Shown: piece by piece, positions 17,689 to 62,605 of the stretch | How the letters are laid out: the number at the start of each line of letters is the position of its first letter | Numbering within the stretch: the first letter of the stretch is position 1 | Source: a bacterium | GTDB lineage: Bacteria; Electryoneota; JAOADG01 | Length of the DNA: 64,000 bases | NCBI GenBank assembly: GCA_963681965.1 | Contig: OY820579.1 | Location: 2,496,001-2,560,000, forward strand | Direction of reading: 5' to 3' | The notes under the pieces: model-generated | Databases searched by the model: none | Told to the model about the DNA's origin: nothing | Seen by the model: the letters and a program-made list of their open reading frames with translations, nothing else | Translations under genes and position numbers: made by a program

Positions 17689-18348
17689 ATGACGAAACCC
17701 AGTAAAATCAATACTTCCGTGCGAAACGACCGCGCAAACAAGCCCGCGCTACCGGCTCCAGTTCCGAATTTGCAAGTAAGCGTAAACGAGAAACAGACGC
17801 TGAACGGTGCTGCGATCTGTGGTGTGGTTTCGAAGAAAGGAAACGAGTGCAGCCGAGCAGCGATGGCGAACGGTCGCTGCCGTTTTCATGGCGGGAAACT
17901 GTCCGGAGTAATGATGGCTCGCCCCGGAAATCGCAATGCAGTCAAGCATGGTGCATTTCTGCCTGATATCCAGGACGAACGCGAACAGAATGCGTTCGAT
18001 CTGTTCTTGTCCGATCTTTACGAAGTCTTCCCGGATCTGAACAAAGCGAGCGATCTCCGACATGCTCAGCTGGCTGCCATTACCTATATCCGTTTGCTAC
18101 GTGCGCTTTGGGGCGAAGCTTCAAGCTCTACGATAGACGATCTCTCCCGAGCGTTCACGCGGCACCTTGCGGCAATACGGGTAAACCGTGACCAACGGGT
18201 GAGCGAGACCGATGCCCACGCAGGTCCGAGATCGCCTGCCGAATATGCGGTTGAGATCATTCAGCAGGTTCGGATGTATTCGAAGGGTGGTGCTTCTCCA
18301 GTTTCAATCGATCCCGTTTTGCTCGGGTTGGACGTAGAAAATGACTGA
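17689..18348 (+). CDS. HGGxSTG-domain protein, putative terminase small subunit
   Basis: C..C..NGRCRFHGG and PGNRNAVKHG; position upstream of terL. Confidence 0.7.
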   Translation: MTKPSKINTSVRNDRANKPALPAPVPNLQVSVNEKQTLNGAAICGVVSKKGNECSRAAMANGRCRFHGGKLSGVMMARPGNRNAVKHGAFLPDIQDEREQNAFDLFLSDLYEVFPDLNKASDLRHAQLAAITYIRLLRALWGEASSSTIDDLSRAFTRHLAAIRVNRDQRVSETDAHAGPRSPAEYAVEIIQQVRMYSKGGASPVSIDPVLLGLDVEND

Positions 18349-18480
18349 GATGCTTCAGGGGCTAAAGTGTCATAATTCTATCGCTTGTGATTTCAAAGCG
18401 ATAGAAATGAATGATTCTAATCTGGATTATAATAATCAGGATTATAATCTTTCAGCACGCAGGCATGACATGCAGGCAGG

Positions 18481-18738
18481 TCAAGCATCGAGGTCGTCAA
18501 GCCCATCTCCGATTGTGCACTCCCATTCCTTACCGACCTGTTCGATCAAATCGGAATGTAAACGCAGCGATTCTGCAAACTCTTTTTGTCGTGCTTCGTG
18601 TACTACGTTCACCAATGCTTCCCTGCAAAATGCGGCAAGGGATATTCCTTTTGACCTTGCCATCTTCTGTGCAGCCACTTTTAGTTCCAGCGGAACCGTG
18701 ATCGTCATTCGAACCATGCGTTCTGATATTTTTGCCAT
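18481..18738 (-). CDS. Ribbon-helix-helix (CopG-like) regulator
   Basis: RMTITVPLELKVAAQKMARSKGISLAAFCREAL; RBS GGAG. Confidence 0.7.
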   Translation of the reverse strand: MAKISERMVRMTITVPLELKVAAQKMARSKGISLAAFCREALVNVVHEARQKEFAESLRLHSDLIEQVGKEWECTIGDGLDDLDA

Positions 18739-19321
18739 GTTTACTCCTGGGTTAGATCGCCACAGAATGCGTCTCCCGAATTGCCAAATCAAGTGTCGCC
18801 AGAAAAACGGAAAATACCCATCGCAGACCATCGCAAATTCGTTACGAGAAATCGCGACTTACGATCTAACTCGTGAGAATATCAGCAGGGAATCGGTATT
18901 CTGCGATTGTACCTCGGGCGGGGTGGCAGCTGCGTCGTCTTGGAATTCTGTTCAAATTCCGACGTGTGTCTGCTGTGTCCAGAACGTGTCAGAAGGTCGC
19001 TCTGATCGAAAATACAAAGACTTAGTAGATTTGCTGGTATGTCACGCTGGCGAATGTGTTCAAACGGCAGGGGTGGATTATGGAAATAGTTATGGATCAA
19101 ACTGCATAACTCGCAACAATTCAAAGGTTTGGCGATCTGTTCGAATATGTTCTGTCACCGTAGTGAAGTTTCGTTGGCCCAAGTTCTGGATCTTTCAATC
19201 GCAACCGCGAAACGCAACCGGCAAAGCTCGAAGCGAAAAACGCAGGGTAGCCCCAAAGGGGGTGTCTGGCAGGGTATTAGGGTCAAAATTCCGAATCAAC
19301 AGTGAAACTCTGGCTCGAAAC

Positions 19322-19501
19322 TCATTTGGCGAGCTTCTTCAAAGTTGCATCTTGCTCACCCATCAACCGTTTGGTTGCGATAGCAACTTTCTTCCGGTGG
19401 CGTTTCCGTTCAGGTTTCACCACCAGATCAGTATTGCTATTTGCTGGAATTTCTTCGACAGCACTGAGACGTTTCGATTTCAATGTTCGCCGATTATTCA
19501 T
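19322..19501 (-). CDS. 59-aa antitoxin-like peptide (not in the ORF track)
   Basis: RBS AAGGGA; ends ATKRLMGEQDATLKKLAK, similar to C-termini of Doc-associated antitoxins. Confidence 0.4.
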   Translation of the reverse strand: MNNRRTLKSKRLSAVEEIPANSNTDLVVKPERKRHRKKVAIATKRLMGEQDATLKKLAK

Positions 19502-19600
19502 GGTAGTCCCTTACACGAAAATTCCTGCAATTTTGCATTTCAAATGCAAATATACAGGCTTACTCAATGTGAATACAGAATTCAAAGCAAGAGTAATCAT

Positions 19601-20509
19601 CTAGTTAAATCTGGCTGTTCGGCTTTCCATCGCTTCTTCGAACGACTCGTCGGTTATATGAGCATAAATCTGCGTATGGACGATGCTGCGATGTCCGAGC
19701 GCCTTCTGTACAACCAGAATATCGTGGTTCTTAGCATACAGCGAAGTGGCAAAGGTGTGCCGGAGTTTGTGGGGAGTGACTTGCTTCAGGATGCCTGCTC
19801 GTTTTACCCACTTCGACACGACGATTTGAAAGCCTCTGCTCACCATTCGACCGTATTGCTGGTTTACGAAAAGAGCATTCACGTTGCTGTCAGTTGCGAA
19901 GTGTTTTCGTTCACCTTGGATGTACTGATCTATGGCATCGCGAGTGATCGATGGAAGAAATTTGCGAATGGGGTTGCCACCTTTTGCTCGCTTGATGAAA
20001 AGATGTTTATCGGAGATATCAGCCAGTTCGATCTGTGCCAGCTCACCTACCCGGATTCCGGTATCGAGCAACACCCGGATGATCGCGTAGTCCCGTTGCT
20101 GATGAATATTGCGCGGGTAATCTCGCAGACAATCGAGCAGTTGCTTCTCCTCAGCTTCATTGAGGTAGGTCGGCGGCAACGGCTCAACATGTTTGATCTG
20201 CACGTGTTCCGCCGGGTTATCGGGAATATGACCATTTCGCTTTGCCCAGAGGAAAAACGATCGCAGTGCAGCCTTCATTCGGTTAATGGTATTCGCGTGT
20301 TTCATCGAGCCATCGGATTTGGTAGCGAACAATACGACAAAGCTGTCAATATCGCCGCTGGTAACGTTCTTGATAGTGGATATACCGGTAGCAGCAAAGA
20401 ACTCGAAGCAATGACCAAGGTCAGCAGTGAAGTTCTTGATAGTATGAGGCGACTTACTCTGAGCCAGCAAGTACGTCCGGTAGTCGACAATCAGTTGCTC
20501 AAAGCTCAC
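19601..20509 (-). CDS. Tyrosine recombinase (XerC/D-like)
   Basis: DTGIRVGEL, HKLRHTFAT, LGHRSIVHTQIY catalytic R-H-R-H-Y residues; N-terminal SAM-like domain. Confidence 0.93.
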   Translation of the reverse strand: MSFEQLIVDYRTYLLAQSKSPHTIKNFTADLGHCFEFFAATGISTIKNVTSGDIDSFVVLFATKSDGSMKHANTINRMKAALRSFFLWAKRNGHIPDNPAEHVQIKHVEPLPPTYLNEAEEKQLLDCLRDYPRNIHQQRDYAIIRVLLDTGIRVGELAQIELADISDKHLFIKRAKGGNPIRKFLPSITRDAIDQYIQGERKHFATDSNVNALFVNQQYGRMVSRGFQIVVSKWVKRAGILKQVTPHKLRHTFATSLYAKNHDILVVQKALGHRSIVHTQIYAHITDESFEEAMESRTARFN

Positions 20510-20715
20510 TGTTCATCCTCCTCGATGGTGAACCATGTCCAGTTTGTGGCATGGCGGAACCACACTTCCAATCGTTGTCCTACGAACTCCGTCAGATCGA
20601 GGCACATTCGGAAATCGCCATACAATACAAGTTCTTTGCCATTGTCTCGTAAAAAATTGAATTGCAGTATCGATCCTTCTTGGGAAAAAGACTGCAGGGT
20701 TGCGAAACACTCCAT
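20506..20715 (-). CDS. Hypothetical protein
   Basis: RBS AAGGAGG; coupled to the recombinase start. Confidence 0.6.
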   Translation of the reverse strand: MECFATLQSFSQEGSILQFNFLRDNGKELVLYGDFRMCLDLTEFVGQRLEVWFRHATNWTWFTIEEDEQ

Positions 20716-20725
20716 TGTATCCTCC

Positions 20726-20998
20726 TTATCGTTTCAAACCGGCGACTTTACCGTCTTCGCCGAGGGTCAAGTTCGAGAAATAACCAGAGCGCAATCTCTT
20801 CCACTCACTCTTGGCGTGGTAACTAGGGACGTTTTCAAAGACGATTTTCACTTCGTAGCGGACCGCTACTCGGGAAAGTTTGAAGCGGTAAAATCGCGGT
20901 TTCCCATCGGCACCAGGGAAAGAGTTTTGCAGGTGCCCGTAACTGTCAAGTTTCCAGCCTTTGCTCTGTGCCCAGTCAATGAATTGTTCTCTGGTCAT
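20726..20998 (-). CDS. Hypothetical protein
   Basis: RBS AGGAG; overlaps the upstream stop. Confidence 0.65.
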   Translation of the reverse strand: MTREQFIDWAQSKGWKLDSYGHLQNSFPGADGKPRFYRFKLSRVAVRYEVKIVFENVPSYHAKSEWKRLRSGYFSNLTLGEDGKVAGLKR

Positions 20999-21297
20999 TG
21001 GTTATCTCCTGTGGTGATGGGTTCTAACTCTTCGCGTCGCACTTCGACCTGTACAAACGATCCGGTAAAGCCAATCTCAATCGCGAAATACAACGCGGGG
21101 TCTGGTGTACCGGGTGCGATTAGCAGTTGGGGGTATTGATCGATGTTGTATCTGGTTAAAAAAAGATTGGCTTCGGGATCGCTTGGTTCCGGTTGGTTCA
21201 TAAAGAAGCCGGTAATCTCGGCATTACGCGGGTGGGTCAAGTATCTCACTTGCTGTCCAAGCCTGTACTGGATTGGGTTTGCGGGTTGTGCTGGCAT
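20995..21297 (-). CDS. Hypothetical protein
   Basis: RBS AAGGAG; preceded by a sigma70-like promoter at 21323-21356. Confidence 0.65.
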   Translation of the reverse strand: MPAQPANPIQYRLGQQVRYLTHPRNAEITGFFMNQPEPSDPEANLFLTRYNIDQYPQLLIAPGTPDPALYFAIEIGFTGSFVQVEVRREELEPITTGDNQ

Positions 21298-21375: not shown

Positions 21376-22950
21376 ATGAGTGGAAGTGTAAAGAAAGCAA
21401 AGGCTTCGCAGGGCGCATCCGTCGCAATTCCATCGGGATTAGCCAGTGTTTTTACCGTTCTGGTCGATCCTGCGGTATGGGGGGAGCACTACCTCAAGAA
21501 CCCGGATGGAACGAGGCGTAGCTACTGGCAGCATCAATACAGCGACTTACGGTCACCGGCAAAACAGATTATCCATCAGGATGGTCGCGAGGTCGGCAAA
21601 ACAATCGTGTTAACTACTCTGGTGCTGCATTACGGATTTACGACTCATAATGGTTCGGGCTTGGTGGCAACCCCGCATCAAGGACATCTCGAAACAATTA
21701 TCGATGAGATCGAGCAGCAGATTTTCAACAATCCAACGCTGCTGGCAAGTGTCGCAAAAAACCGTTATGGCAATCCCGACATCAGCCAGAAACCGTATTA
21801 CCGCATCCGGTTCTCGACCGGGACAGTAATCCATTTCCGGCAGGCGGGCGATTCCGGTCAACCATTTCGGTCGTTGCATGTCGACCGGGTCTGGGTCGAT
21901 GAGGCAGCCTGGATGACTGAGCGGTCTTGGAAAGCACTTCGGCGTTGTCTGAATGAGGCAGGTGTGTTTCGGATTTATTCGACACCGAATGGTCTACGCG
22001 ACACCACTTACTACCGGTTAACGCAGGATAAAAATAAACGGTGGCAGGTGGTGCGATGGCCATCGTCACTGCATCCCAACTGGACCGTAGCTCGCGAAAA
22101 AGAACTGATGGAATTCTATGGTGGTCGCGATACCTCCGGTTTCCAGCATGAGGTATTAGGGGAACATGGCAGTCCAACGTACTCGGCATTCCCAGTTGAT
22201 TCGATTCGCATTGCATTGACTGACATCCCGGAATACCAACGCGTGATTCTCACCGGTAATGAATTATCCGATTGCGAAACTGAGGATGCGATTCGGGCGA
22301 GACTCGATATGCTTGTCGGTCTGACTCCACAAAAAGGGAAGTTTTGGCTCGGTGGCGACCTCGGTTATACATCCGATCCATGCGAATTATTGGTGTGGCA
22401 GGAAGATGAAACCGGCAAGTTGTCACTGGTCTACCGGTTACATGCCGAGCATGTCGCCTATCCGATTATCGCGGAGCTGATTGCGGTGATGGATGATTAT
22501 TTCGGATTTGTAGGACTCGGTGTTGACGAAGGTGGTAATGGACTGGCGGTTGTTCAGGAACTGACCACACTCGACAAGTTTTCCGATGCGCGTTTCTCCG
22601 ACCGTTTACTTGGTTTCAACTTCGGAAGTTCGACTGTGATCGGATATACCGACGAAGGGAAGCAACGAAAAAAGCGCACCAAGGAGTTGATGACGAGTCT
22701 GATTAATGGTCGACTGTCGCAACGAACGATTCGTTTTCCCAACGACGATCCTGAAATCGAGGATCAGTTTACCACTCACACCTACAGCATGTCCGAAGGA
22801 AAGATCATCTATTCCAAGGGACGCGACCACATTATCGATGCAACGCGCTGCGCGATGCTGCGGGTGTATCTGGAAGAAATCAAAGAACTGAGGCCGGAAG
22901 TCGAAGAGGCAGCCTTAATGCCGCTTACCACTGATCCGTTATTTACGTGA
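21376..22950 (+). CDS. terL: Terminase large subunit
   Basis: GREVGKT Walker A, VDEAA Walker B, STPNG, RNase H-like GGDLG, DHIIDATR. Confidence 0.9.
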   Translation: MSGSVKKAKASQGASVAIPSGLASVFTVLVDPAVWGEHYLKNPDGTRRSYWQHQYSDLRSPAKQIIHQDGREVGKTIVLTTLVLHYGFTTHNGSGLVATPHQGHLETIIDEIEQQIFNNPTLLASVAKNRYGNPDISQKPYYRIRFSTGTVIHFRQAGDSGQPFRSLHVDRVWVDEAAWMTERSWKALRRCLNEAGVFRIYSTPNGLRDTTYYRLTQDKNKRWQVVRWPSSLHPNWTVAREKELMEFYGGRDTSGFQHEVLGEHGSPTYSAFPVDSIRIALTDIPEYQRVILTGNELSDCETEDAIRARLDMLVGLTPQKGKFWLGGDLGYTSDPCELLVWQEDETGKLSLVYRLHAEHVAYPIIAELIAVMDDYFGFVGLGVDEGGNGLAVVQELTTLDKFSDARFSDRLLGFNFGSSTVIGYTDEGKQRKKRTKELMTSLINGRLSQRTIRFPNDDPEIEDQFTTHTYSMSEGKIIYSKGRDHIIDATRCAMLRVYLEEIKELRPEVEEAALMPLTTDPLFT

Positions 22951-22958
22951 GGATTCCA

Positions 22959-24398
22959 ATGAAACTATGGCCGTTTACTACTGCACCAAAACCGATGGAA
23001 ACAACCACGATCACGATTCTCGATGATTCGATGGGTGCTGCCGCCGATATCTCCGGAACATTTTCGTCGGAATACACTGTGCAAGGGATTCCGACCATCT
23101 GGGAGGAACGCGGCAAGCTCGCCTGGCAATACTACACCGAGGAACCGATTGTCAACAACGCGATCAATGCCTGGCGTACGTTCGCTATCGGTGATGAGAT
23201 ACAGGTGACTTCCGATGATGAAGAAACCCGTAAAGCCGCACGTGATCTGTTCAAGCGACTAGCGTTGAATGACTTCGTTCGCGACATGATCCTGCAATTG
23301 CTGGTCAAAGGCGAATGCATGGGTTACAAGACCTACGGTGGACAGAAAAAGAAAACCGTTGGCGGTAAGGAAGGATATTCCGAGATCGAACAGATCTGGT
23401 GTCTGAATCCGGTTTCGGTTCAGTTCCAACTGGATAAGGGCGAGATCGTAAAGATTATTCAGAAAACCGAAGATGCTGTTGGCATTACCTCCGGTAGTGA
23501 GATCGAACTCAATTCCGGACAGTTCTATCACCAGAAATGGAACAGTCCCCAGTTTAACTCGCGTGGCAACTCGATGGTACTCCCGGCATTCGAGTCGATT
23601 GAGCTGATGCGCGACTACCGGCGTGCCGAGCGTGCCATCGCCAAGCGGTGGACGACTCCGCTTCGTTTTATCACGGTTGGTGGCAAGTTCGGTGATAAGG
23701 TAGTAATGCCGACGCAGAAGATGCTGCAGCAGGTGCGCGATACGATCAATAAAATGGATTTAAAGTCGGGTATGGTCGTTCCGTTCTATGTCGATGTGAA
23801 AACCTACGGCGCCGAAGGAATTGTTCTCAATACCGAAGAGAAAGTCAAAGAGATCAAATCCGATATCGTTGTTGCCCTCGGTTTTGTCAAATCACTGATT
23901 ACCGGTGAGGGTCCCAACTTTGCCACCGCCAGTGTCGGTTTCTCCAAAGTTATTCTGATGCTGAAGGAGATCAAGCAGATTGCTCGCGACGTGTTGACCT
24001 GGATTTTCGACGACTGGAAGGAATTGAACGGCTGGCAGGACAAACACATCGACTTCATTTTTTCCGATATCGATCTCACCAATGAAGATGGTCAGAAGAA
24101 GATGCTGGTCGAGCTGTATGATCGGAAAATCATCTCCATCGATACGCTACAATCGAAGTTGGGTCTGCGCCCCGAAGTGGAGGCTGCCAATCAAGTCGAG
24201 GAGCGGAAGAGTACCATCGATTCCCTCACGATCAAGGACATCGCGACTCTGATCGCATCAGGAGTGGTCTCGGTGCAGACCGTACAGGAACATCTCGGAC
24301 TTGATCCTGTTACCGAGGATAAAAACATGAAACAATCCGATGCGCAGAGTGTAGCAGACATTTATGCATCGGTTGATTTGCCGGATGTTCTCCAATGA
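22959..24398 (+). CDS. Portal protein
   Basis: Follows terL; ~480 aa; EPIVNNAI, RGNSMVLPAF, NFATASV. Confidence 0.8.
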   Translation: MKLWPFTTAPKPMETTTITILDDSMGAAADISGTFSSEYTVQGIPTIWEERGKLAWQYYTEEPIVNNAINAWRTFAIGDEIQVTSDDEETRKAARDLFKRLALNDFVRDMILQLLVKGECMGYKTYGGQKKKTVGGKEGYSEIEQIWCLNPVSVQFQLDKGEIVKIIQKTEDAVGITSGSEIELNSGQFYHQKWNSPQFNSRGNSMVLPAFESIELMRDYRRAERAIAKRWTTPLRFITVGGKFGDKVVMPTQKMLQQVRDTINKMDLKSGMVVPFYVDVKTYGAEGIVLNTEEKVKEIKSDIVVALGFVKSLITGEGPNFATASVGFSKVILMLKEIKQIARDVLTWIFDDWKELNGWQDKHIDFIFSDIDLTNEDGQKKMLVELYDRKIISIDTLQSKLGLRPEVEAANQVEERKSTIDSLTIKDIATLIASGVVSVQTVQEHLGLDPVTEDKNMKQSDAQSVADIYASVDLPDVLQ

Positions 24399-30555: not shown

Positions 30556-31011
30556 TTAATGTGATAATTGACGAGCGTTGTGTCTTGTAGATTGGGAATT
30601 GCTTTTAGACCTCGTCCCAACAGCGCTTGATCGTTTCTTACCCGAACTTGTTTCGAACAAGTATGAAACTGGAATGCCCAATCCTTCGTGGATAGCGCTG
30701 ATCATTTTCTTGCTAAGTTCGCGCTTGCCAGATAGCACTTCATACACTCGTGTTCTTGTCCCAATGAATGGAATGAGATCCTTGTTGGTTAATCCCTGTT
30801 GTTCCATCACGAATCGGATCATTTCAATCGGGGAAACTTTCAAATCTCTCATTGAGCTGTGCGCATCGTCGAAGTGTTGCATTAGAACAGCAATTAACTC
30901 AATCTCATTTGCTTCGGGTGAATTAGGTTGCGGATCGAGCGCAATCAAGCTGTCCATCTCGTTGAGAGCAGCCTGGTAATCTTCCGCAGTTTTAATTAGT
31001 TTCAGTTCCAT
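30556..31011 (-). CDS. higA: HigA antitoxin (XRE HTH)
   Basis: IKTAEDYQAAL, PIEMIRFVMEQQGL..GTRTRVYEVLSGKRELS. Confidence 0.9.
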   Translation of the reverse strand: MELKLIKTAEDYQAALNEMDSLIALDPQPNSPEANEIELIAVLMQHFDDAHSSMRDLKVSPIEMIRFVMEQQGLTNKDLIPFIGTRTRVYEVLSGKRELSKKMISAIHEGLGIPVSYLFETSSGKKRSSAVGTRSKSNSQSTRHNARQLSH

Positions 31012-31019
31012 AGTTTCCC

Positions 31020-31307
31020 CTATCCTAACCTAAGTTTATCATACTCCGCGTGCGTTCCAATCCAAACGACTCGCACGACACCAGCAACATACACTACCTG
31101 TACTACCAACCGATGCTTGTTTCCACGTATGTTAAATATGACACGGTTATCGTGTAGGAAACTAGCAGTCGCGAACCTAAGCTTAATATCATGAGTGGTT
31201 TTCCACTCTGCTTCGGTTATCAGCATAACCCACGCTTTCAAAGCAATGGCTACGTCAGCATGAGATCGGCAATAGTCGTCGATTAGTTTCCGGTTTGCGA
31301 TTAACAT
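31020..31307 (-). CDS. higB: HigB toxin (mRNA interferase)
   Basis: RVIFNIRGNKHRLV..WIGTHAEYDK. Confidence 0.92.
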   Translation of the reverse strand: MLIANRKLIDDYCRSHADVAIALKAWVMLITEAEWKTTHDIKLRFATASFLHDNRVIFNIRGNKHRLVVQVVYVAGVVRVVWIGTHAEYDKLRLG

Positions 31308-31396: not shown

Positions 31397-31425
31397 TTGA
31401 CAGAGAGTTCCGGTTTTCGTAAATT
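31397..31425 (+). promoter_or_regulatory. Sigma70-type promoter for the head operon
   Basis: TTGACA-17 bp-TAAATT. Confidence 0.6.
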
Positions 31426-31482: not shown

Positions 31483-31532
31483 CCGGCATCATACTTCTGA
31501 GGAAGAGGTATGGTGCCGGTTTTTTTGTTTTT
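31483..31532 (+). terminator. Terminator/attenuator hairpin in the leader of the head operon
   Basis: CCGGCATCATAC / GTATGGTGCCGG 12-bp stem (one G-U pair) followed by a T-tract. Confidence 0.7.
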
Positions 31533-31542
31533 AGGAAAATTG

Positions 31543-34035
31543 ATGCACCTCGATTCGCAAATTCGTTACTTGCTCCAGACTCATGCTGAACTGCGTTCAG
31601 TAGCTCAGGATAAGGCTGAACAGGTTTCGTACGTAACCAATTACATCGGCTCGAAACAAAAACTTGTCGAGTGGATTTGGTCACACACCCCCCACGGTGT
31701 GCAGAGTGTGCTTGATGCGTTCAGTGGCAGCTCCGTTGTTGGTTATATGTATAAGCGGCAGGGCTTGCGGGTCGTGGCTAACGACCGTTTGAAGTACGCA
31801 TTTCACATCGCCCGGGCGATCATTGAGAACAACGATACGACTCTTTCAGAAGGCGATATCGATGGATTGCTCGCGGATAACTCAAAGGCGCGAACCTTTG
31901 TCCAGGACAACTTCAAGGGGTTGTTCTTCGCCAAAGGTGTGCATGCAGCTATCGATAACATTCGCACCAACATAGATGATCTGCGCGGGTACAAAAAGGA
32001 TATCGCACTGTTCGCACTTGCGAAAGCGTGCATCAGTGGCAAGGGCGGTTTCGGCCATTTCCAATCGTCGGTACGGTACGGAAAATTCGAAGATACTCTG
32101 GATGAATTCACCAAGCGATTCCGCGATAACTGTGCGACGATCAACCAGCTCGTGTACGACAACGGCAAAGAGAATCGTGCCGAAAACTCCACCATCGATG
32201 AGTTGCTTCCCGGTGTTAAAGTTGATCTAGCCTATTTCGATCCACCGTATGCGACCGAGTTCTCGACCACCAATTACGAAAGCTATTACCACTTTGTCGA
32301 AGGACTGATGACCTATTGGGACGGTCTGACTATCAATATCGATAGTGCCACCCACAAGTTCATTGAAACCGGTGAACAGACGGTAACGCAGGCATCTGCC
32401 GAAGCATTTTTTGAGACGTTTCTGAAGAGTGCCGCTGGTATCGGATGCTGGATCATTTCTTATCGCGATCATGCCTTTCCCAACGAAGCGAAGATCAAAT
32501 CTCTAATTGCGGATTCCGGTAAAGTGTCCCGAATGTTTTCGAAGGATCACTCTTACCAGCTCGCCGGAAACGACCGTCGTGGCGATGCCTCACAAGCCAA
32601 AGAGCGGATATTCGTCTGCGGACCAACTGAGACAGCAATACGAGTTGTAGCAGATTTGGAAGAGGAAGTATCTCAAACTTCACAGGGAGTATCTGAGCAA
32701 TTTCCAGCAAGTGGTTTTCGTGACGAGAAACACTGCAAAGCAACGATCACTGCCAATATCAAGTTGGTTGCCGATGCGAAAGTCGCCGGTGTCGCTGATA
32801 CAGATCCTGAGTTTGTATTTGTACTAACGCACGTCGGCACCAATCTCAACGGTGATAATTTCACTCGCGACGAACTGATCAAAGCTGCACCTACTGCGAT
32901 TTCACGCAAAGTCGATCTCAAACATTCGCAGGATCTCACTGACATCGTCGGTGGCATTACCGATTCCCAGTGGAAAGATGAAGAGGGCGGTTTGATAGAA
33001 TGTACCGGTCGTCTCTTTGTTTCTGATAATCCGCACGCCCAGCTCGCTTACCGGCTCATGAAGGAAGGGATCGTCAAGCAGGTCTCAATGGAATGCCAGT
33101 ACGATGCAGGTGAGTGTTCGATCTGTGGAAAGAAATTCTCTTCTAAGGCTGACTACTGCATCCATCTCCGCAAATACAAAGGTGCCACTTATCAGGGAAA
33201 ACCGGTATTTGAAATCCTGCGTGGTGTCGTGTTTACCGGTGTGGGATTGCTTTCCGATAAAGGTGCCGACGAACGTGCGGTAATCCGTTCCGTTGCTGCA
33301 ACTGGAGACAAAATGAAAACACAGGCATTGTCTTTTTCCGAATATTTCCTCCAGCAACAGCGCAGTATGACGCTGTGGGACGTCGTGGGAGGATTACAAA
33401 GTTATCTGGGCGACCTACTTGGCAAAGTGAAGAATGAAGACCTCACCAACGACCAGGCCTTTGAACTGATGCAGAGTGGTGTTGAGCAATTTCGTTCCTC
33501 GCTGGAGGAGCTGTTTCAAAATCCAGCCGATTTACCAACTGTGGAGGCAAAGAAAATGAGTGATCAGAAACCACCGGAAACCCCTCCGGCGAGTGAGGCA
33601 GCTCCGGCAAGCGAACAGATCAAGACGCTGACGCAGGAGAATGCCGATTTGAAAAAGCAGGTCGAAGAGCTGGCGAAGCAACTTGACACGCTGAAGAAAG
33701 CTGCTGCTCAAGAAAAAGCGAAGGCAAAAGCGACGGAATTAGTGAAACGATTCGAACTCAAGGGTCGCACGTTCGCCAATGATACCGAGCGGGAAGCTGA
33801 GATTGAACGTCTATCAGCGCTTTCTGAAGATGCGCTCGCTGCAGTCGAAAACAGTCTTGCCGTTATCCCGGACATGAGTGCGCAGGCGAATCGCCAGCCG
33901 GTACTCAAAACCGATGCCGGTGTAAAGCCGGTCAATGTTCCCGATGCACCTCCCGGTGATTCACTGGGCAGCGAGCTGAAGGAAGGGATTCTGGCTGCTT
34001 ACAAACACAATCGTGGCGAACCGGTAAACCCCTAA
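31543..34035 (+). CDS. Fusion of D12-class N6-adenine DNA methyltransferase, prohead protease and scaffold
   Basis: NYIGSK, LDAFSGS, DPPY; then NLNGDNF..DLKH..VSMEC..CSIC..GADERA protease; coiled-coil C-terminus; upstream of the capsid genes. Confidence 0.85.
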   Translation: MHLDSQIRYLLQTHAELRSVAQDKAEQVSYVTNYIGSKQKLVEWIWSHTPHGVQSVLDAFSGSSVVGYMYKRQGLRVVANDRLKYAFHIARAIIENNDTTLSEGDIDGLLADNSKARTFVQDNFKGLFFAKGVHAAIDNIRTNIDDLRGYKKDIALFALAKACISGKGGFGHFQSSVRYGKFEDTLDEFTKRFRDNCATINQLVYDNGKENRAENSTIDELLPGVKVDLAYFDPPYATEFSTTNYESYYHFVEGLMTYWDGLTINIDSATHKFIETGEQTVTQASAEAFFETFLKSAAGIGCWIISYRDHAFPNEAKIKSLIADSGKVSRMFSKDHSYQLAGNDRRGDASQAKERIFVCGPTETAIRVVADLEEEVSQTSQGVSEQFPASGFRDEKHCKATITANIKLVADAKVAGVADTDPEFVFVLTHVGTNLNGDNFTRDELIKAAPTAISRKVDLKHSQDLTDIVGGITDSQWKDEEGGLIECTGRLFVSDNPHAQLAYRLMKEGIVKQVSMECQYDAGECSICGKKFSSKADYCIHLRKYKGATYQGKPVFEILRGVVFTGVGLLSDKGADERAVIRSVAATGDKMKTQALSFSEYFLQQQRSMTLWDVVGGLQSYLGDLLGKVKNEDLTNDQAFELMQSGVEQFRSSLEELFQNPADLPTVEAKKMSDQKPPETPPASEAAPASEQIKTLTQENADLKKQVEELAKQLDTLKKAAAQEKAKAKATELVKRFELKGRTFANDTEREAEIERLSALSEDALAAVENSLAVIPDMSAQANRQPVLKTDAGVKPVNVPDAPPGDSLGSELKEGILAAYKHNRGEPVNP

Positions 34036-34053: not shown

Positions 34054-34473
34054 ATGGCAAACTATCTCAATGCCACCTTGCCGGGAATTGCCTACGGCAA
34101 TGGCGAACTGCAGGGTCCGGGTAACCCCGGGCAAATCGTGAAGTTGATCGGTAACGATCTCTTCGCTGTAGTCAGTAATGCGAACGATGAACCGTTTGGC
34201 ATCATCGGACGCACCAACCGCACCAAGAATTCACCGACCCCGGGACCGAATGACAAGGTACTGGCAGTGGTGTTTGTTGGCGACGGTATCTACGAAACCG
34301 ACAATTTTTCCGGTTCGATCACAGCCGGTGATGCGCTCACCTTCGATGCGACGCTCGGCAACCTGAAAGTTGCTGGCGCCGGAAGCCAGATTATCGGTCG
34401 TGCGCTGTCGGTATCGGATGGGCTTTTGAAGTTTCAGTGGACGAATCACGGGACCAGTGTCCCCTCGGCGTAA
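34054..34473 (+). CDS. Capsid decoration/cement protein
   Basis: Small Gly-rich beta protein between scaffold and major capsid. Confidence 0.65.
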   Translation: MANYLNATLPGIAYGNGELQGPGNPGQIVKLIGNDLFAVVSNANDEPFGIIGRTNRTKNSPTPGPNDKVLAVVFVGDGIYETDNFSGSITAGDALTFDATLGNLKVAGAGSQIIGRALSVSDGLLKFQWTNHGTSVPSA

Positions 34474-45778: not shown

Positions 45779-46789
45779 TTAGAACAGGGTGTAGTAAACG
45801 CCACGCCCTTTTCCGTGTTGTTGCAGCAATCCGTTCTTAACCATGCTTTTCAAATGACTCTTTACAGTATTGCGATTGGCTTGAAGTTGGTCGGTGATAT
45901 CGGTGATTGATGCCCGACCTCGCTCTTTTACAAGTTGACGAATTGATTCCGGCAGAGACATAACCTGTGTTTGTCGTTGCTGATCAAGCCGAGTTGAGAG
46001 ATGATCTTTCTGGCGCTTGAGTGATAGTAGAAAGAACTCATTCCAGGCTGGATCATCAAATTTTGTCTGTGTTTTACGCAGTGCGAGATAGTAATCCTGT
46101 TTGTGAAGTTCGATTTGCTGTTCAAGCGATGCGTACTGAATAAAATCATAACCAGATCGAAGTAGTAACAGGTTCGTAAGAATGCGCGATAATCTCCCAT
46201 TGCCATCCTGGAAGGGATGAATCGCAAGAAAGTGAACTACAAAATCAGCGACGATCAACAGTGGATGTTCTTCCATTGATGCGAATCGTGAAGCAATCTG
46301 TTCAATTAGCGCTCTGGTTTGATGAGGTGTTTCCAGTGGTGTGGTCGTCTCGAAAACGATTCCGATTTCTACTCCGGTTTCGTCAAATGCGGCAACGTGA
46401 TTCGCATGATGTTTGTAACTGCCAAGGTGCCATTGGTCTTTGCTCGAATGTTGGAGTAAAAGCTTATGCAGGTACATGACGTTGTTTTCAGTCAAAGGGA
46501 TATCACTATGCGATTCGGAAATCAATTTCATTGCGACAGCGTATCCAGCGACTTCCTCTTCGTCACGGTTGCGAAACGATTTTACATCGAGTCCGCGCAG
46601 AAGAGTCTCAATTTCTAAATCAGATAGCTTTGCCCCTTCGATGCGGGTTGAAGATCCGATGGATTCAATGGTGGCAAAACGACGAAGAGTAGTCAGTGTC
46701 TCAATGGACAAACCAGAGAGACCACGCCAATACCCTTTGAATTCATCAATCTCGGCTATTAGCCGAAGAATGGACGGAGTGAGTGTCAT
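45779..46789 (-). CDS. fic: Fic family protein with C-terminal HTH
   Basis: HPFQDGNGRLSR Fic motif; N-terminal inhibitory SSTRIEG. Confidence 0.92.
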   Translation of the reverse strand: MTLTPSILRLIAEIDEFKGYWRGLSGLSIETLTTLRRFATIESIGSSTRIEGAKLSDLEIETLLRGLDVKSFRNRDEEEVAGYAVAMKLISESHSDIPLTENNVMYLHKLLLQHSSKDQWHLGSYKHHANHVAAFDETGVEIGIVFETTTPLETPHQTRALIEQIASRFASMEEHPLLIVADFVVHFLAIHPFQDGNGRLSRILTNLLLLRSGYDFIQYASLEQQIELHKQDYYLALRKTQTKFDDPAWNEFFLLSLKRQKDHLSTRLDQQRQTQVMSLPESIRQLVKERGRASITDITDQLQANRNTVKSHLKSMVKNGLLQQHGKGRGVYYTLF

Positions 46790-56594: not shown

Positions 56595-56751
56595 CCTTCT
56601 CTACACTTCCATAAACATCCATAATTACACCCCTTCTAATATCCTGTAAGCCTTACCAGTAAAGCGTTTGCAGGTATTGCCTTGACTTGACTTCGGCAAT
56701 CACTTCCTCGTAATGTGTTGCCAACGAGTTGTTCTAACACAAGGCAATACC

Positions 56752-57666
56752 ATGATATACACGATATACAACCAACGCTTCGGTGTCGAGATTGAGACTG
56801 TAGGATGCGAACGAGCCAAGATTGCCAAGGCAATTGCAGAAGTCGTAATCGGTCAGATATCACTTGATCCTACTGGTGCATACAACGCAACGCTGGTAAC
56901 GCAAACGGATGGCAGAATCTGGCGCATCCAAAACGACGCTTCGGTAGCAACAGTGAATGGAGTAAAGGGGTCGGAAATTATCTCACCGATACTCCTTTAC
57001 AGCGATATAGAGAATCTACAAAAGATAGTAAGAGCGGTTCGCAATGCGGGTTGTAAGACTTCATCCTCATGCAGTGTCCACGTGCATGTTGAGGGCGCTC
57101 CGCATACACCGCAAACGCTTAGCAACCTTGCCAAGCTCTATTACCGCAACGAGGATTTACTGTTTCAAGCGGTTGGAACATTGCCATCCCGCAAGGTGCG
57201 CTTCACCAAGCCGATGGAACAGGATTTTATCGACCGTATTGCCAGTAGTCGACCGACGACGATGGATGAATTTAACAAGTTGGTTTTCGGTCAATACACG
57301 CCGCATCCGGAACATTACAACAATAGTCGATACCGAGCGATCAACTGGGTGAATCTTTGGAGACCAATCAACACGGTCGAGTTTAGGCTCTACAATAGCA
57401 CGTTAAATGCCTTGAAGGTCACCGCCTGGGTGCAACTCTCGCTAGCACTGTCGGTACGCGCTCTCAACATGAAGCAGACAACCCATACCAAGATCAATAC
57501 CGACAATCCCAAGTTCAACTTCCGGGTCTTCCTTGTATCCTCACTTGGCATGATTGGCAACGAGTTTAAGTCGACCCGCAGCATCCTACTCAAGAATCTA
57601 CCGGGCAACAGCGCTTGGCGATACGGTAAGCCAGAAAATCATGTTGAGGTCGCCAATGCCAAGTGA
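56752..57666 (+). CDS. Putative amidoligase (COOH-NH2 ligase type 2)
   Basis: FGVEIE, DAS, EIISPIL, CSVHVHV, RYRAIN, TVEFR. Confidence 0.88.
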   Translation: MIYTIYNQRFGVEIETVGCERAKIAKAIAEVVIGQISLDPTGAYNATLVTQTDGRIWRIQNDASVATVNGVKGSEIISPILLYSDIENLQKIVRAVRNAGCKTSSSCSVHVHVEGAPHTPQTLSNLAKLYYRNEDLLFQAVGTLPSRKVRFTKPMEQDFIDRIASSRPTTMDEFNKLVFGQYTPHPEHYNNSRYRAINWVNLWRPINTVEFRLYNSTLNALKVTAWVQLSLALSVRALNMKQTTHTKINTDNPKFNFRVFLVSSLGMIGNEFKSTRSILLKNLPGNSAWRYGKPENHVEVANAK

Positions 57667-58111
57667 TACTTGCACCATACCGTATTTCGCGTACGGGGCG
57701 AATCTCAATCTGGTTGGAATGGACTGCCGTTGCCCTGGTCATCTTCCTCGCTGTATTGCATACATCGAAGATTACCAGCTCGTCTTTCGAGGTGTAGCAT
57801 CCATCGAGCCAGCGGAGGGACACCGGGTGTATGGCGCATTGTACTTACTCGATGAAAAACATCTTGCCGCACTTGACCGTTTCGAAGGATACCCGCGACT
57901 GTATCGCCGTGAGATTTTATCACTCCGCAAAGCCGGAAACAACCACCGTACGGAAGCATGGGTGTACCTCATGAATGCTGAACGCAACGATTATTACCCA
58001 CCATCCGGCGGATACCTGAGCACCATTATCGACGGCTGTCACGACTGGGGAATTCCCAATATATACATCCGTGAAATTCACTCAATCGCAAGGAGAAGCA
58101 AACAATGGTAA
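57656..58111 (+). CDS. Gamma-glutamylcyclotransferase (GGCT/AIG2-like)
   Basis: YFAYGANL, LDRFEGYP.LY, AWVY. Confidence 0.88.
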   Translation: MPSDTCTIPYFAYGANLNLVGMDCRCPGHLPRCIAYIEDYQLVFRGVASIEPAEGHRVYGALYLLDEKHLAALDRFEGYPRLYRREILSLRKAGNNHRTEAWVYLMNAERNDYYPPSGGYLSTIIDGCHDWGIPNIYIREIHSIARRSKQW

Positions 58112-58461: not shown

Positions 58462-59175
58462 ATGAATCAGCAACCACAACGCAAGAAGCAAGTCGGCGAC
58501 TGGGTCGTCGTCACAGGCGGACAAAATCGCGGTATTGCCGGTGAAATAACCGTGATCAACCATCCTCGAATAACAGTTACCACTGCAGATGGAAATGAGA
58601 TCCATACCACCAGTGGATGGTTGGAATTTGCTAAGCGACCCGCAAAAAGAAAAGTGGAAGTGTCGTCGTTAGATGCACCAGTACCTGCGAGCGAACCAAT
58701 CGATTTATCTCGTGTCGCATTTGTTCACAGTGTAACTACCATCGAGTCGGAACCACCAGTTATTGAGCCGTTTGAAACTGTGGAAACGACACTGTCCGAA
58801 GTGGAACCCTCTCTCATCCCGGTGCCTGAGCCGGACGTCTCTTCCATTGCCGAGCCCGTATCTGTGCCACCGGAGTTAGTTACCGAGCAATCATCCGAAC
58901 CAGCACCGGAAAATGCCACTGTAGCCATCGTGGCTACGAACCCCTACAGCGAAATGACGGTCGTGCAACTGCAGTTGCTCGCCAAAGAGCGCGGCATCAG
59001 TATTGCCCGAACCAAGAGCGACTTCGTTCGGATTCTTACTGCTCAAGTTCCGGATATCGATGTCACTACGCTGAAAGGTCCCGAGCTATACAACAAGGTC
59101 GCAGAGCACCATATCTCTAGGCTCCGCTCCAAACACGATTTGGTTGATTTGCTGTCGCAAGGGGTTAGCCAATGA
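58462..59175 (+). CDS. KOW/SH3-like N-terminus, Pro/Glu-rich linker and tandem Rho-N/HeH-like domain shared with the MuF protein
   Basis: VGDWVVVTGGQNRGIAGEI; C-terminal IARTKSDF..LRSKHDLVDLL. Confidence 0.75.
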   Translation: MNQQPQRKKQVGDWVVVTGGQNRGIAGEITVINHPRITVTTADGNEIHTTSGWLEFAKRPAKRKVEVSSLDAPVPASEPIDLSRVAFVHSVTTIESEPPVIEPFETVETTLSEVEPSLIPVPEPDVSSIAEPVSVPPELVTEQSSEPAPENATVAIVATNPYSEMTVVQLQLLAKERGISIARTKSDFVRILTAQVPDIDVTTLKGPELYNKVAEHHISRLRSKHDLVDLLSQGVSQ

Positions 59176-60755
59176 TCCAACGCTTTGAAAATCTGAGTGC
59201 AACAGGTACGCCGCCGCTTCATGCAGTGGCGTATCTGCGCAAGTCGACGCGGGAGATGCAAGAAAACTCTATCTACAACCAACAGCTCGCGATTGACAAG
59301 TTTGCACAACACCACAATATCAAGATCGTAAAATACTTCATCGATGATGGCATCTCCGGTCTCACCATGCAGAAACGGGATGCCTTCAAGGAACTCATTA
59401 ACGATTACGTCGTTGGTGGTAAAGATCATTTTAGCATCATCCTGGTGCTGGATGTAACTCGCTGGGGTCGCTTCCAGGACATTGACGAATCAGCGCACCT
59501 GGAATTTCTTTGTCGGAAGCATGGCAAGGAAATCATCTATGTGACTGAGGAATTCAAGAACGATAATTCGATCATGGATTCACTGATCAAGGCGCTGAAA
59601 CGAGCAATGGCTGCTGAGTATTCCAAGAATTTGAGCGACAAGGTCCTTGCCGGTTCACTTACCATAGCAAAGCAGGGATTCCGAGTCGGTGCGCCTGCTC
59701 CCTACGGATATGAACGAATGCGCCTCGACCAGCAACGTAATCCCGTTGGAATTCTTCGCGATGGTGAACGAAAAGCGATTGCCAATGAACGTGTTACCCT
59801 TGTACCCGGTTCACCGGAAGAGACTGAAACCATTCGCCACATATTTTCCGCATTTACTGAACGTGGTCTGCGTGAAGGTAAAATTGCGGTTGAATTGAAT
59901 GAACGAAAAGTTCCCTCACCGGGTGGAGGTGAGTGGTCGGAAAATACGATCAGGGTGCTACTGCGCGATGAAACGTACACCGGTACTCTGCGGTACAATC
60001 GTACATCGTCGCGACTGCATGGACCTACGAAGAAAAATCCGCGTGACCGGTGGGTACTGGTTCCGCAGGCATTCGAAGCGATTGTCTCTCCGGATACCTT
60101 CGTGCAAGCCCAACAGATATTTCAAGAGCGACATCCAGTTTGGAATGATCAGGATATTATTCTCCGTTTACAGGAGCTGTTTCAGAAGCATGGAAAGCTG
60201 ACTGGATTGATCATTGAATCAACACCGGAGATGCCTTCTACCACCATCCTGAAAAAGCGATTCGGTTCGTTGTTCAATGCCTACAAATTGGTCGGGTATG
60301 TACCACCCTATGATATCCGATTCTTCGAATTGAAGGACATGGTAAAATCCATCGAAGAAAAATTGTGGCAAGATGTACTTGCAGCACTTAACGAGATGGG
60401 ACTCACCGTAGTTGATCATGGCACTCACCTTTGTCTCAATGAACAGCTCAACATTCAACTCATGGCTTCCAGTATCCGTAATAACAATGGGAAGAAACGC
60501 TGGGCATACCGCTTCGACCATCAGGTTGATATTGATCTGACTCTTGCTGTACGCCTTGCTGATGACGAAGGAAACATTCTTGATTTCTACTGTTTCCCAA
60601 CTATCGCAATGGAGACGGAAAAATTATTTGTCTCGTGGTCAAACGGAATCTACATCGATGCGTTTCGGTTCGATACCCTGATCGATGTGTACGATTTGTT
60701 TGGTGACACTGACCGTATTAGAAAGGAGGAACCAACGTATGAAAACCGTTCGTAA
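59172..60755 (+). CDS. Second large serine recombinase
   Basis: AVAYLRKST, DDGISG, DVTRWGRFQD, MAAEYSKNLS, APYGYER. Confidence 0.93.
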   Translation: MIQRFENLSATGTPPLHAVAYLRKSTREMQENSIYNQQLAIDKFAQHHNIKIVKYFIDDGISGLTMQKRDAFKELINDYVVGGKDHFSIILVLDVTRWGRFQDIDESAHLEFLCRKHGKEIIYVTEEFKNDNSIMDSLIKALKRAMAAEYSKNLSDKVLAGSLTIAKQGFRVGAPAPYGYERMRLDQQRNPVGILRDGERKAIANERVTLVPGSPEETETIRHIFSAFTERGLREGKIAVELNERKVPSPGGGEWSENTIRVLLRDETYTGTLRYNRTSSRLHGPTKKNPRDRWVLVPQAFEAIVSPDTFVQAQQIFQERHPVWNDQDIILRLQELFQKHGKLTGLIIESTPEMPSTTILKKRFGSLFNAYKLVGYVPPYDIRFFELKDMVKSIEEKLWQDVLAALNEMGLTVVDHGTHLCLNEQLNIQLMASSIRNNNGKKRWAYRFDHQVDIDLTLAVRLADDEGNILDFYCFPTIAMETEKLFVSWSNGIYIDAFRFDTLIDVYDLFGDTDRIRKEEPTYENRS

Positions 60756-61638
60756 TGTCGTTGAAATCAAGATCGACAGAATCAAAATCATCAATCCACG
60801 CGAGCGCGATCCGGCGAAGTTTGCAGAAAATGTCGCCAGTATTCAGCGCCTCGGTTTGAAACGTCCGATTGTCGTCAATTCCCGCTTCATCAAGGAGCAT
60901 GGTAAGTACGAGTTGGTTTGTGGTCAAGGGCGCATTGAAGCATTCCAGAAATTGAAACGTGACACTATTCCAGCATTAACCGTAGATGTCGACCGCGAGA
61001 CCGCACTCATCATGTCCATCGCGGAGAATGCTACCCGGAGCATGCCACCACCCATCTGGTTCGCACAAGTAGTCAAAGGGCTCGTAGAAAGTGGAATGTC
61101 GATTGATAACATTGCTGTTATTGTTGATCGGAGTCCGGTTGTGGTTAGAGACTACTTGACCTTGATTGAGCATGGTGACCGGCGACTAATTAATGCCGTA
61201 GAACAACAACGGATAGCCGTTCGAGCTGCGATAGCAATCTCACGAGAGCCTAATGGGGAGTTGCAACAACTTCTGGCGAAAGGAATCGAGAGTGGTTTGT
61301 TTGACGCAAATGAGATTTCTGCTGTGCGAAAAATTATCCAGAACCGGATGCGTTTTCTACAAGCCAACCAGGCAAAGAAGGAAAGTAAGAATTCCGGGAG
61401 ATTGGAGCTTTCAATAGAGGCACTGCGAAAGGAAATCAAGCGGAAACTCGACAAATGGGATGACTTCATTCGCAGGTCTCGTCGTAACGAGAATCAAATA
61501 ACAATCCTCAGCGATTCCTGTACCCGGTTGTTTGAAGATTCCGACTGGTTAGAAGTGATCGAAGCACAGAAACTTACGGAATTTCCAAAGTTGCGTGGCG
61601 ACGATTTGAGTGTACTCTTCCCAACAATGAAAAAGTGA
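60739..61638 (+). CDS. ParB/RepB-like N-terminal domain protein 1
   Basis: NPRER..SIQRLGLKRPIVV..LVCGQGRIEA..ENATR. Confidence 0.85.
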   Translation: MKTVRNVVEIKIDRIKIINPRERDPAKFAENVASIQRLGLKRPIVVNSRFIKEHGKYELVCGQGRIEAFQKLKRDTIPALTVDVDRETALIMSIAENATRSMPPPIWFAQVVKGLVESGMSIDNIAVIVDRSPVVVRDYLTLIEHGDRRLINAVEQQRIAVRAAIAISREPNGELQQLLAKGIESGLFDANEISAVRKIIQNRMRFLQANQAKKESKNSGRLELSIEALRKEIKRKLDKWDDFIRRSRRNENQITILSDSCTRLFEDSDWLEVIEAQKLTEFPKLRGDDLSVLFPTMKK

Positions 61639-61645
61639 GGTTATT

Positions 61646-62506: not shown

Positions 62507-62556
62507 GCCACTAACTTATGAAATAACAAGATGTAACGTATCTTTAAGTAGCTATA

Positions 62557-62585
62557 TTGACATTGACTGTCTATTATGTTACTTT
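62557..62585 (+). promoter_or_regulatory. Sigma70-type promoter
   Basis: TTGACA-17 bp-TACTTT with extended TG. Confidence 0.5.
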
Positions 62586-62605
62586 GCGGTACGGAGGAAA
62601 TTATC

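Follow-up and report, generated by a model that had tools for sequence, protein, structure and literature searches.

A prophage head gene in which a Dam-like adenine methyltransferase is fused to an assemblin-fold protease and a nested scaffold

The fusion gene and its domains

The window analyzed here is a stretch of 64,000 nucleotides (positions 2,496,001-2,560,000 of contig OY820579.1) from a genome that consists of a single contig of 4.24 Mb. From about 3.4 kb to 56.6 kb the window is occupied by an apparently complete, myovirus-type prophage of about 55 kb. It encodes, in order, a serine recombinase, a RecD-like helicase, an AEP primase, the large terminase, the portal, a MuF protein, the gene studied here, a protein of 139 amino acids (aa), the major capsid protein (MCP), sheath, tape measure, baseplate, holin, and amidase. 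The gene in question is a single uninterrupted open reading frame (ORF) in which a D12-class DNA methyltransferase (MTase), a disordered linker, an assemblin-fold protease with a CxxC..CxH insert, and a helical scaffold follow one another (Table 1). An earlier note on this DNA, made from its letters alone, had described this anatomy, and every motif that it named was found in its place. PHROG 27806 matched aa 38 to 598 of the 841-aa open frame (E = 6e-203); this family models the MTase and the protease as a single family, and its name is only "DNA methyltransferase".

The longest open frame of the gene, 31510..34035, encodes 841 aa. The start was set at ATG 31543, giving 830 aa, because the proteins of the closest relatives, P0002 and P0003, start at the corresponding methionine, and ATG 31510 was disfavored because it falls within a 16-pair hairpin that has a T-run (31483-31519). 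ATG 31543 is thus most likely the true start. A promoter-like site (TTGACA, 17 nt, TAAATT; 10/12) is located at 31397-31425 on the plus strand, ahead of the hairpin, and this layout resembles a late promoter with a downstream terminator to be overcome by antitermination. A scan for promoters and terminators against shuffled sequences showed no enrichment of either (5 promoter-like sites versus a mean of 8.3, and 7 terminator-like sites versus 7.1).

The N-terminal domain scored 79.3 bits against Pfam PF02086 (gathering cutoff, 22 bits; E = 4.9e-22). Its sequences NYIGSK, DAFSGS, and DPPY, which we take to be motifs X, I, and IV, respectively, stand in the order X-I-IV and are invariant in alignment A1 (30 sequences). 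In the full-length structural model, with a mean predicted local distance difference test (pLDDT) value of 73.7, the MTase blocks mostly reached values of 80 to 96, and the model was confident over about aa 40 to 375. Foldseek rendered 15 matches at E ≤ 0.001 (8e-6 to 9e-4) for the MTase, the best solved folds being those of Mcbe1 (7m6b, E = 7.9e-6), Escherichia coli Dam (4rtn, 1.7e-5), and DpnM (2dpm, 9.7e-5). By sequence, no solved MTase relative was detectable in the PDB; searches with the C-terminal half, the MTase domain, and the family profile yielded only C2H2 zinc-finger or coiled-coil matches plus one unrelated methyltransferase. The prophage enzyme has the Pfam family, the motif order, and DPPY in common with Dam, DpnM, and Mcbe1, which are also its closest solved folds, whereas it differs from them in being about 100 residues longer and in being fused to head proteins.

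The middle domain was assessed by structure because no curated profile recognized it. Three results speak against calling it a head protease. No Pfam protease family matched it at E ≤ 0.01, Mu-like_Pro and S78 included; TIGR01543 reached only 16.5 bits (E = 0.007) against a cutoff of 59; and a Foldseek search of the PDB with the domain model gave no match at E ≤ 0.001, the best values being 4e-3 and 6e-3. Despite these weak E values, Foldseek placed assemblin-fold families at the top, the same families as those ranked first by VIA-align, in which the AlphaFold2 model of the domain (66-sequence alignment; pLDDT, 90.8; predicted template modeling score, 0.82) was compared exhaustively with 48,161 chains. 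The best matches were varicella-zoster virus protease (Z 11.4, root mean square deviation 2.6, 114 residues aligned) and T4 gp21 (Z 11.2, deviation 2.8, 127 residues aligned), with the proteases of human cytomegalovirus (Z 8.6) and Kaposi's sarcoma-associated herpesvirus (Z 7.6) after them; unrelated folds began at Z 6.8, below all four assemblin-fold proteases. In the viral structure library BFVD, the matches were to proteins named prohead or head-maturation protease (COG3740; E = 1e-8 to 1e-10) and to gp19 of Bacillus phage G (E = 2e-16), whose gene sits between the portal and capsid genes. The prophage gene likewise lies between portal and MCP, an order that is kept in its relatives. His461, a glycine, and Ser515 are invariant in alignment A1 and in the 66 diverse sequences of alignment A2, and SMEC and CxxC..CxH occur in all 125 unique fused relatives. 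The earlier note's reading of this domain as a protease is in this way supported by the fold; we assign the domain, as modeled, to the assemblin fold class, but not to the HK97 TIGR01543, S78, or Mu-like_Pro families.

More distant homologues (P0175-P0268) carry the protease domain at the N terminus of proteins of 750 to 1840 aa whose remaining parts have no Pfam match. In one of them, P0245, the protease domain contains an intein that carries a LAGLIDADG endonuclease.

Table 1. Positions in the window of the fusion gene, its parts, and adjoining head genes
Feature	Position	Strand	Remarks
Full-length gene, MTase-linker-protease-scaffold polyprotein	31543..34035	+	830 aa; ORF, PHROG 27806, start from relatives and hairpin
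D12-class (Dam-like) N6-adenine DNA MTase domain, aa 1-361	31543..32625	+	Pfam PF02086, fold, motifs
NYIGSK, presumed motif X, aa 33-38	31639-31656	+	
DAFSGS, presumed S-adenosylmethionine-binding motif I (FxGxG-like), aa 58-63	31714-31731	+	
DPPY, presumed catalytic motif IV, aa 233-236	32239-32250	+	
Flexible linker, aa 362-423	32626..32811	+	Candidate processing site
Acidic cluster DLEEE, aa 371-375	32653-32667	+	
Capsid-maturation serine protease domain (assemblin/prohead-protease fold, from model), aa 424-585	32812..33297	+	Fold, invariant His/Ser
His461	32923-32925	+	In DLKHSQ, 32914-32931
Ser515	33085-33087	+	In VSMEC, 33082-33096
CxxC..CxH Zn-type insert	33115-33165	+	After the catalytic Ser
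Nested scaffold product, 240 aa	33313..34035	+	Same frame as the polyprotein C terminus
Internal ribosome-binding site GGAG (33304-33307) and ATG 33313	33304..33315	+	GGAG 5 nt upstream of ATG; ctGGAGacaaaATG
Second in-frame start, GGAGG (33543-33547) and ATG 33556	33543..33558	+	GGAGG 8 nt upstream; lineage-specific
Scaffold C-terminal helix LGSELKEGILAAYKHNR (..SLEDxLxxGFMAAYxxR)	33964..34014	+	Predicted capsid contact
139-aa head protein, possible decoration or minor capsid protein	34054..34473	+	Between fusion and capsid genes
HK97-fold MCP, 288 aa	34484..35350	+	NF042927, phrog_2522
Large terminase	21376-22950		Prophage
Portal	22947-24398		Prophage
MuF protein, 1437 aa	24395-28708		Prophage

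Relatives of the fusion gene

Alignment-based scans detected 176 relatives in species-representative genomes and 195 in viral contigs, and 80 of each were kept, giving 160 loci; these scans replaced single-sequence locus scans with the C-terminal half, which had returned only coiled-coil noise. The fusion was present as one ORF in 138 of the 160 loci (113 with one MTase and 25 with two). Among the remaining loci, 14 were cut by contig ends and 8 were split or otherwise different. Downstream of the fusion, an MCP homologue was found in 133/160 loci and the small head protein in 139/160; upstream, MuF was found in 117/160 and portal in 104/160. By record title, the hosts belong to Desulfobacterota, Armatimonadota, Hydrogenedentota, Verrucomicrobiota, Planctomycetota, Nitrospirota, Acidobacteriota, Myxococcota, Gammaproteobacteria, Chloroflexota, and others, host labels of metagenome-assembled genomes being liable to error. 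Cultured carriers, again by title, include Desulfosarcina alkanivorans PL12, Ectothiorhodospira shaposhnikovii DSM 243, Syntrophus buswellii DM-2, and Sulfidibacter corallicola M133. Among GenBank phages, in a set from which records close to the window may be missing, no fused relative was found, with four weak partial matches by tblastn and none by megablast.

A word-indexed search rendered 465 homologous proteins at E ≤ 0.001. Among the 120 matches listed, 117 had the order MTase-MTase-protease-scaffold (1140 to 1402 aa), 2 had a single MTase (the window gene and P0003), and 1 was a fragment from the same genome. The nearest dual relative (P0002, locus L010) is 89% identical to the window gene in the MTase of type MT1 and 86% identical in the protease, and the MT1 type is kept in 99 of 100 single forms. 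The window gene is a single-MTase derivative.

The fusion could in principle be an artefact or a recent accident, due to erroneous sequencing or to the loss of a stop codon, and a second copy of the gene in the same genome shows that such genes can break. This copy (locus L002; G000:C1:1264238-1266445), 85% identical, has lost the first 91 residues with both S-adenosylmethionine-binding motifs and has an in-frame TGA in its scaffold part, while the Shine-Dalgarno (SD) sequence and ATG of the nested start are kept; it is a decayed prophage remnant. The junction in the window gene was covered by a 1228-nt contig (32223-33450) in runs X1 and X3, which stem from two studies, one of them possibly the source sample of the assembly, with 0 differences and 0 gaps. 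The earlier note had suggested looking for such reads and for the same fusion in other phages, and had held that a stop codon in the linker of relatives would betray a recent or artefactual fusion. Hundreds of relatives have the same fusion, PHROG 27806 models both parts together, and the linker stop proved not to be the rule, as only L152 is split between MTase and protease. An artefactual origin is refuted.

The linker, which the earlier note had called acidic, deserves that name only in part: it has the DLEEE cluster, but aa 376 to 419 are balanced, with 5 acidic and 5 basic residues. Over the same residues, the full-length model has a pLDDT of about 30, indicative of disorder. A comparison of the linkers of 130 fused ORFs revealed a conserved motif, ..AANFHTSIPV[ED]I.., whose local form is HCKATITANIKL (32731-32766). 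The pattern P-x-[DEN]-[IV], considered as a cleavage motif common to the linker and the scaffold tail, was dropped, since the two sites of L010 differ (E versus N) and covariation is thus not consistent.

The N-terminal part of the gene shows some variety. A domain of about 78 aa without a Pfam match (starting WEETENEIRY.. in P0047) separates the MTases of many dual forms, follows the MTase in some single forms, and precedes the protease, in one or two copies, in MTase-free representatives; it was seen in L068, P0047, P0015, and L066, and in the representatives P0126, P0127, P0141, and P0133-P0136. The MTase-free representatives and those with the 78-aa domain only may be truncated gene calls. 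Relatives lacking the MTase within the same head module were sought in vain among the loci fetched with the MTase-free representative P0132, as all 10 carry an MTase.

Such variety, with same-clade representatives carrying the 78-aa domain or nothing N-terminally, suggests that this position tolerates varied content, and it is what would be expected if the MTase were a structural passenger, that is, a bulky N-terminal extension tuning protease activity, copy number, or capsid size, in which catalysis is irrelevant. The conservation of the active site makes this highly improbable. DPPY was found once in 100/100 single-MTase ORFs and twice in 25/25 dual ORFs (125 unique fused relatives), and motif I was present in 97 of the single forms and doubly in 24 of the dual ones; besides, the Dam-like fold was confidently modeled, and the MTase is present in all 10 loci fetched with P0132. 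Judged by its motifs, the Dam-like adenine MTase is catalytically intact, with selection acting on catalysis.

Nested scaffold, predicted capsid contact, and the proposed fate of the methyltransferase

Behind the protease, the full-length model contains helices at aa 598-659, 690-739, 747-774, and 807-823, with disordered breaks; a long scaffold helix lies at 33610-33759, and weak Pfam matches of the coiled-coil type were obtained at aa 699 to 741 of the 841-aa frame. The earlier note had proposed that in-frame ribosome-binding sites with ATG codons at 33313 and 33556 yield nested scaffold products. Both sites exist, and their conservation was analyzed in the relatives. A column-wise test found a start codon near the 33313 column in 7/116 relatives and near the 33556 column in 2/116, but this region aligns poorly, which made the test fail, and an alignment-free count was used in its place. 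In-frame ATG or GTG codons with an SD of at least 4 nt were counted in bins. In the bin of 25 codons directly behind the protease their density was 37.5 per 1000 codons; the other bins mostly showed 0 to 2.5, with four bins higher. Of the 127 unique ORFs, 121 have such a site no more than 60 codons behind the protease, and 118 still do so when the SD is required to be at least 5 nt long. The consensus, aAGGAG[a/g] followed after 6 to 7 nt by ATG, is conserved at the nucleotide level, while the encoded peptide varies, and the median length of the nested product in the relatives is 191 aa.

Besides the column-wise result, several features of the count tell against a conserved nested start. A spurious peak of 71 sites within the MTase arises from conserved EGLM codons, 48 sites fall in the 25 codons before the protease end, and further upstream there are two minor peaks (19 and 8 sites). 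Among those of the 48 that were listed, many are GTG codons with a 4-nt SD, 3 codons before the end, beside a stronger downstream ATG. Conserved Gly and Glu codons can, moreover, generate SD-like strings. As the comparison of sequences stands, ATG 33313 represents, in the window gene, a nested start that the family as a whole has kept. ATG 33556 is a feature of the lineage, since it follows an insert of about 75 aa behind the 33313 site that in alignment A3 is found only in the window and in L010; the latter has a GTG with an SD at the equivalent place. Of the two nested starts proposed, one thus stands for the whole family and the other is confined to a sublineage. No conserved separate start was found for the protease, with 21 SD-plus-start sites in two linker bins across the 127 ORFs, so that the protease seems to be produced exclusively as an MTase fusion.

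The C terminus is the most conserved part of the scaffold (..DAGVRPxDVDD..SLEDxLxxGFMAAYxxR). The MCP, which it would contact, matched NCBIfam NF042927 with 205 bits against a cutoff of 80 (E = 1.1e-60) and phrog_2522 (E = 1.5e-56), and its mean column identity is 81% in alignment A4. Complex prediction for the MCP and the last 101 scaffold residues gave a score of 0.62 (runs, 0.66, 0.61, and 0.62), whereas the best of three controls gave 0.01; the score passed a mark that is reached by 116/157 solved complexes and 2/215 mismatched pairs. The predicted interface joins residues 218 to 233 of the nested product with residues 5 to 43 (the N-arm) and 118 to 126 of the MCP. The runs agree in at least 41% of contacts, with a partner pLDDT of 48 to 49. 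The terminal helix of the scaffold is thus predicted to bind the N-arm of the MCP. Two considerations reduce the weight of this prediction: the score comes from alignments built by the analysts and the fold of the partner is uncertain, as its pLDDT shows, and the score may have passed because of likeness to solved scaffold-coat complexes.

Taken together, we think it fairly likely that the gene is a late head-assembly gene of a temperate prophage that gives two products in one frame, and that its MTase is carried into the procapsid, where it would be freed and would serve to protect DNA. The full-length polyprotein would be made along with abundant free scaffold from the internal start at 33313, and both would co-assemble with the HK97-fold MCP through their common C-terminal helix. 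Each protease molecule entering the procapsid would consequently bring an MTase with it, so that every new capsid probably receives the enzyme. The protease would digest the scaffold and probably cut the exposed linker, releasing a folded MTase of about 40 kDa, too large to exit through the capsid pores. The MTase would then methylate the phage genome during packaging, or be ejected with the DNA and methylate it on entry, and either route would confer protection against restriction. In this scheme we infer encapsidation, cleavage, and the place and time of methylation. The earlier note had likewise proposed carriage into procapsids, for which the predicted contact between scaffold helix and MCP N-arm offers indirect support.

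Several points count against this scheme. In the eight atypical loci, out of 146 complete ones, the gene is split or otherwise different, and none of the RNA runs searched for the stretch contains it. Inside the capsid, the enzyme could be active only if S-adenosylmethionine were present. Protection does not depend on packaging, given that a phage methylase can work in the cytoplasm. This last point leads to an alternative in which the fusion serves co-expression only. The MTase, as unassembled or self-cleaved polyprotein, would work in the cytoplasm of the producing cell and methylate replicated phage DNA before packaging; the fusion would link its synthesis and dose to late expression, and any enzyme entering the shell would be degraded with the scaffold. 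Orphan phage methylases are normally cytoplasmic, and the exposed linker makes release before assembly conceivable. Nevertheless, the gene is one ORF in 138 of the 146 complete loci, across many phyla and with the MTase always N-terminal to the protease, a conserved separate protease start is missing, and a timing device alone would not need a covalent link to a module built into the shell. If the common C-terminal helix binds the MCP as predicted, the full-length protein should also be drawn in. We consider this alternative unlikely.

Returning to carriage into the procapsid, the freed MTase may methylate at the time of packaging, be ejected as the P1 Dar proteins are, or be destroyed. The most specific version, a virion cargo targeted by the scaffold, freed by the protease, retained next to the genome, ejected with the DNA, and methylating the incoming genome in cis before restriction, is put forward tentatively, as somewhat doubtful in its full form. 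If true, a single gene that loads and releases its own product would be the counterpart of the multiprotein Dar system of P1, used by hundreds of prophages in more than 10 phyla, often with two methylases of different specificity. It would represent a second, mechanistically different example beside P1 Dar. Temperate phages of anaerobes and environmental bacteria would have in it a widespread and overlooked means of arming their genomes against restriction in advance, and the annotation of such genes as no more than "DNA adenine methylase" would be explained. If the enzyme rides in the capsid, the gene would also be a simple natural cargo-loading device, in which N-terminal fusions to the protease-scaffold are encapsidated and then cut free.

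Neighboring genes and comparison with known systems

The 139-aa protein encoded between the fusion and capsid genes showed weak matches to PF23982, the XM1 gp53 minor capsid family (E = 0.0011, below the cutoff), and to phrog_673 (E = 9e-7). The earlier note had counted an effector carried by the MuF protein toward three modifying enzymes loaded into the head, a claim that is not borne out: in Pfam, only the MuF domain (aa 158 to 273) was recognizable, with no enzyme domain, and chunk scans of the C-terminal stretch of about 1150 residues gave nothing above noise. In relatives, the MuF protein has a bimodal length, about 300 or about 1530 aa.

Between the MuF region and the fusion gene, a cassette of a HigB toxin (PF09907, E = 3e-25) and a helix-turn-helix (HTH) antitoxin is inserted into the head module on the minus strand (30556-31307); relatives have only about 1 kb of small plus-strand ORFs there. 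Amid the baseplate genes, a Fic/DOC-family gene with a winged-helix, repressor-like tail is located on the minus strand (45779-46789). A 932-aa ORF just upstream of the terminase (18341-21139) has no match in Pfam or PHROGs, and the lysis genes are followed by an amidoligase gene and a gamma-glutamyl cyclotransferase-like gene (56713-58111). The region from 59172 to 63757, with a second serine recombinase, ParB/RepB-like genes, and an HTH-M78 peptidase regulator, may be a distinct mobile element next to the prophage. Upstream of the prophage integrase, an AAA_15/AAA_21 ATPase gene with DUF3696 and an RNA ligase-family gene (82-2473) form a possible defense island at the prophage border.

Nested in-frame protease and scaffold genes are known from Mu (I/Z) and lambda (C/Nu3). 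According to the passages cited from the KS10 paper, a scaffold gene embedded in the protease gene is common; KS10 gp28/gp29 and BcepMu gp32/gp33 have, as here, an N-terminal protease and a C-terminal scaffold in one frame with an internal scaffold start, and the KS10 order of protease/scaffold, a small protein of about 120 aa, and major head protein resembles that of the prophage (PMC2628397). Unlike in all of these phages, one or two complete MTases precede the protease in the gene described here, and the protease contains a CxxC..CxH insert; it also departs from Mu-type and HK97 proteases in that the Mu-like_Pro (PF10123) and HK97 S78 models gave no match at their cutoffs. From its sequence, the gene resembles a conventional nested protease/scaffold gene to which one or two MTases have been added N-terminally.

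In the literature searched, no paper on an MTase-protease-scaffold fusion was found, and the supplementary architecture lists of PMC5512222 may include the family. In the passages cited here, Iyer et al. (2017) describe an assemblin-like peptidase at the C termini of some polyvalent proteins, which it probably processes during assembly, and list an N6A methylase as a hub domain (PMC5512222). Those passages name no methylase-protease-scaffold architecture, nested scaffold start, or link to a capsid protein; in them the peptidase is terminal, whereas in the prophage it is followed by the scaffold. The introduction of the same paper also mentions T4 Alt.

Comparison with T4 itself concerns the way in which cargo is targeted. 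In T4, the internal proteins and Alt enter the prohead, where the head protease cleaves them, and they leave the virion together with the DNA; their targeting depends on a short N-terminal peptide on separate proteins. The targeting module of the prophage gene would differ in being the whole protease-scaffold, fused C-terminally.

A functional parallel is P1 Dar. As reported in the passages cited, Dar proteins are ejected with the DNA (PMC12810830), the MTase-bearing DarB is built into the head during morphogenesis, and DarA is trimmed by the prohead protease (PMC12810830, PMC5512222). DarB (about 2000 aa, methylase plus helicase) is nevertheless a separate protein, recruited through DarA and Hdf and unfused to protease or scaffold. 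Its type of methylase is paired with a SWI2/SNF2 helicase (PMC5512222), whereas the prophage MTase is of the Dam-like D12 class and Pfam and PHROGs revealed no helicase domain in the fusion ORF. Thus, the fusion may work like DarB, but it is not a member of the DarB family.

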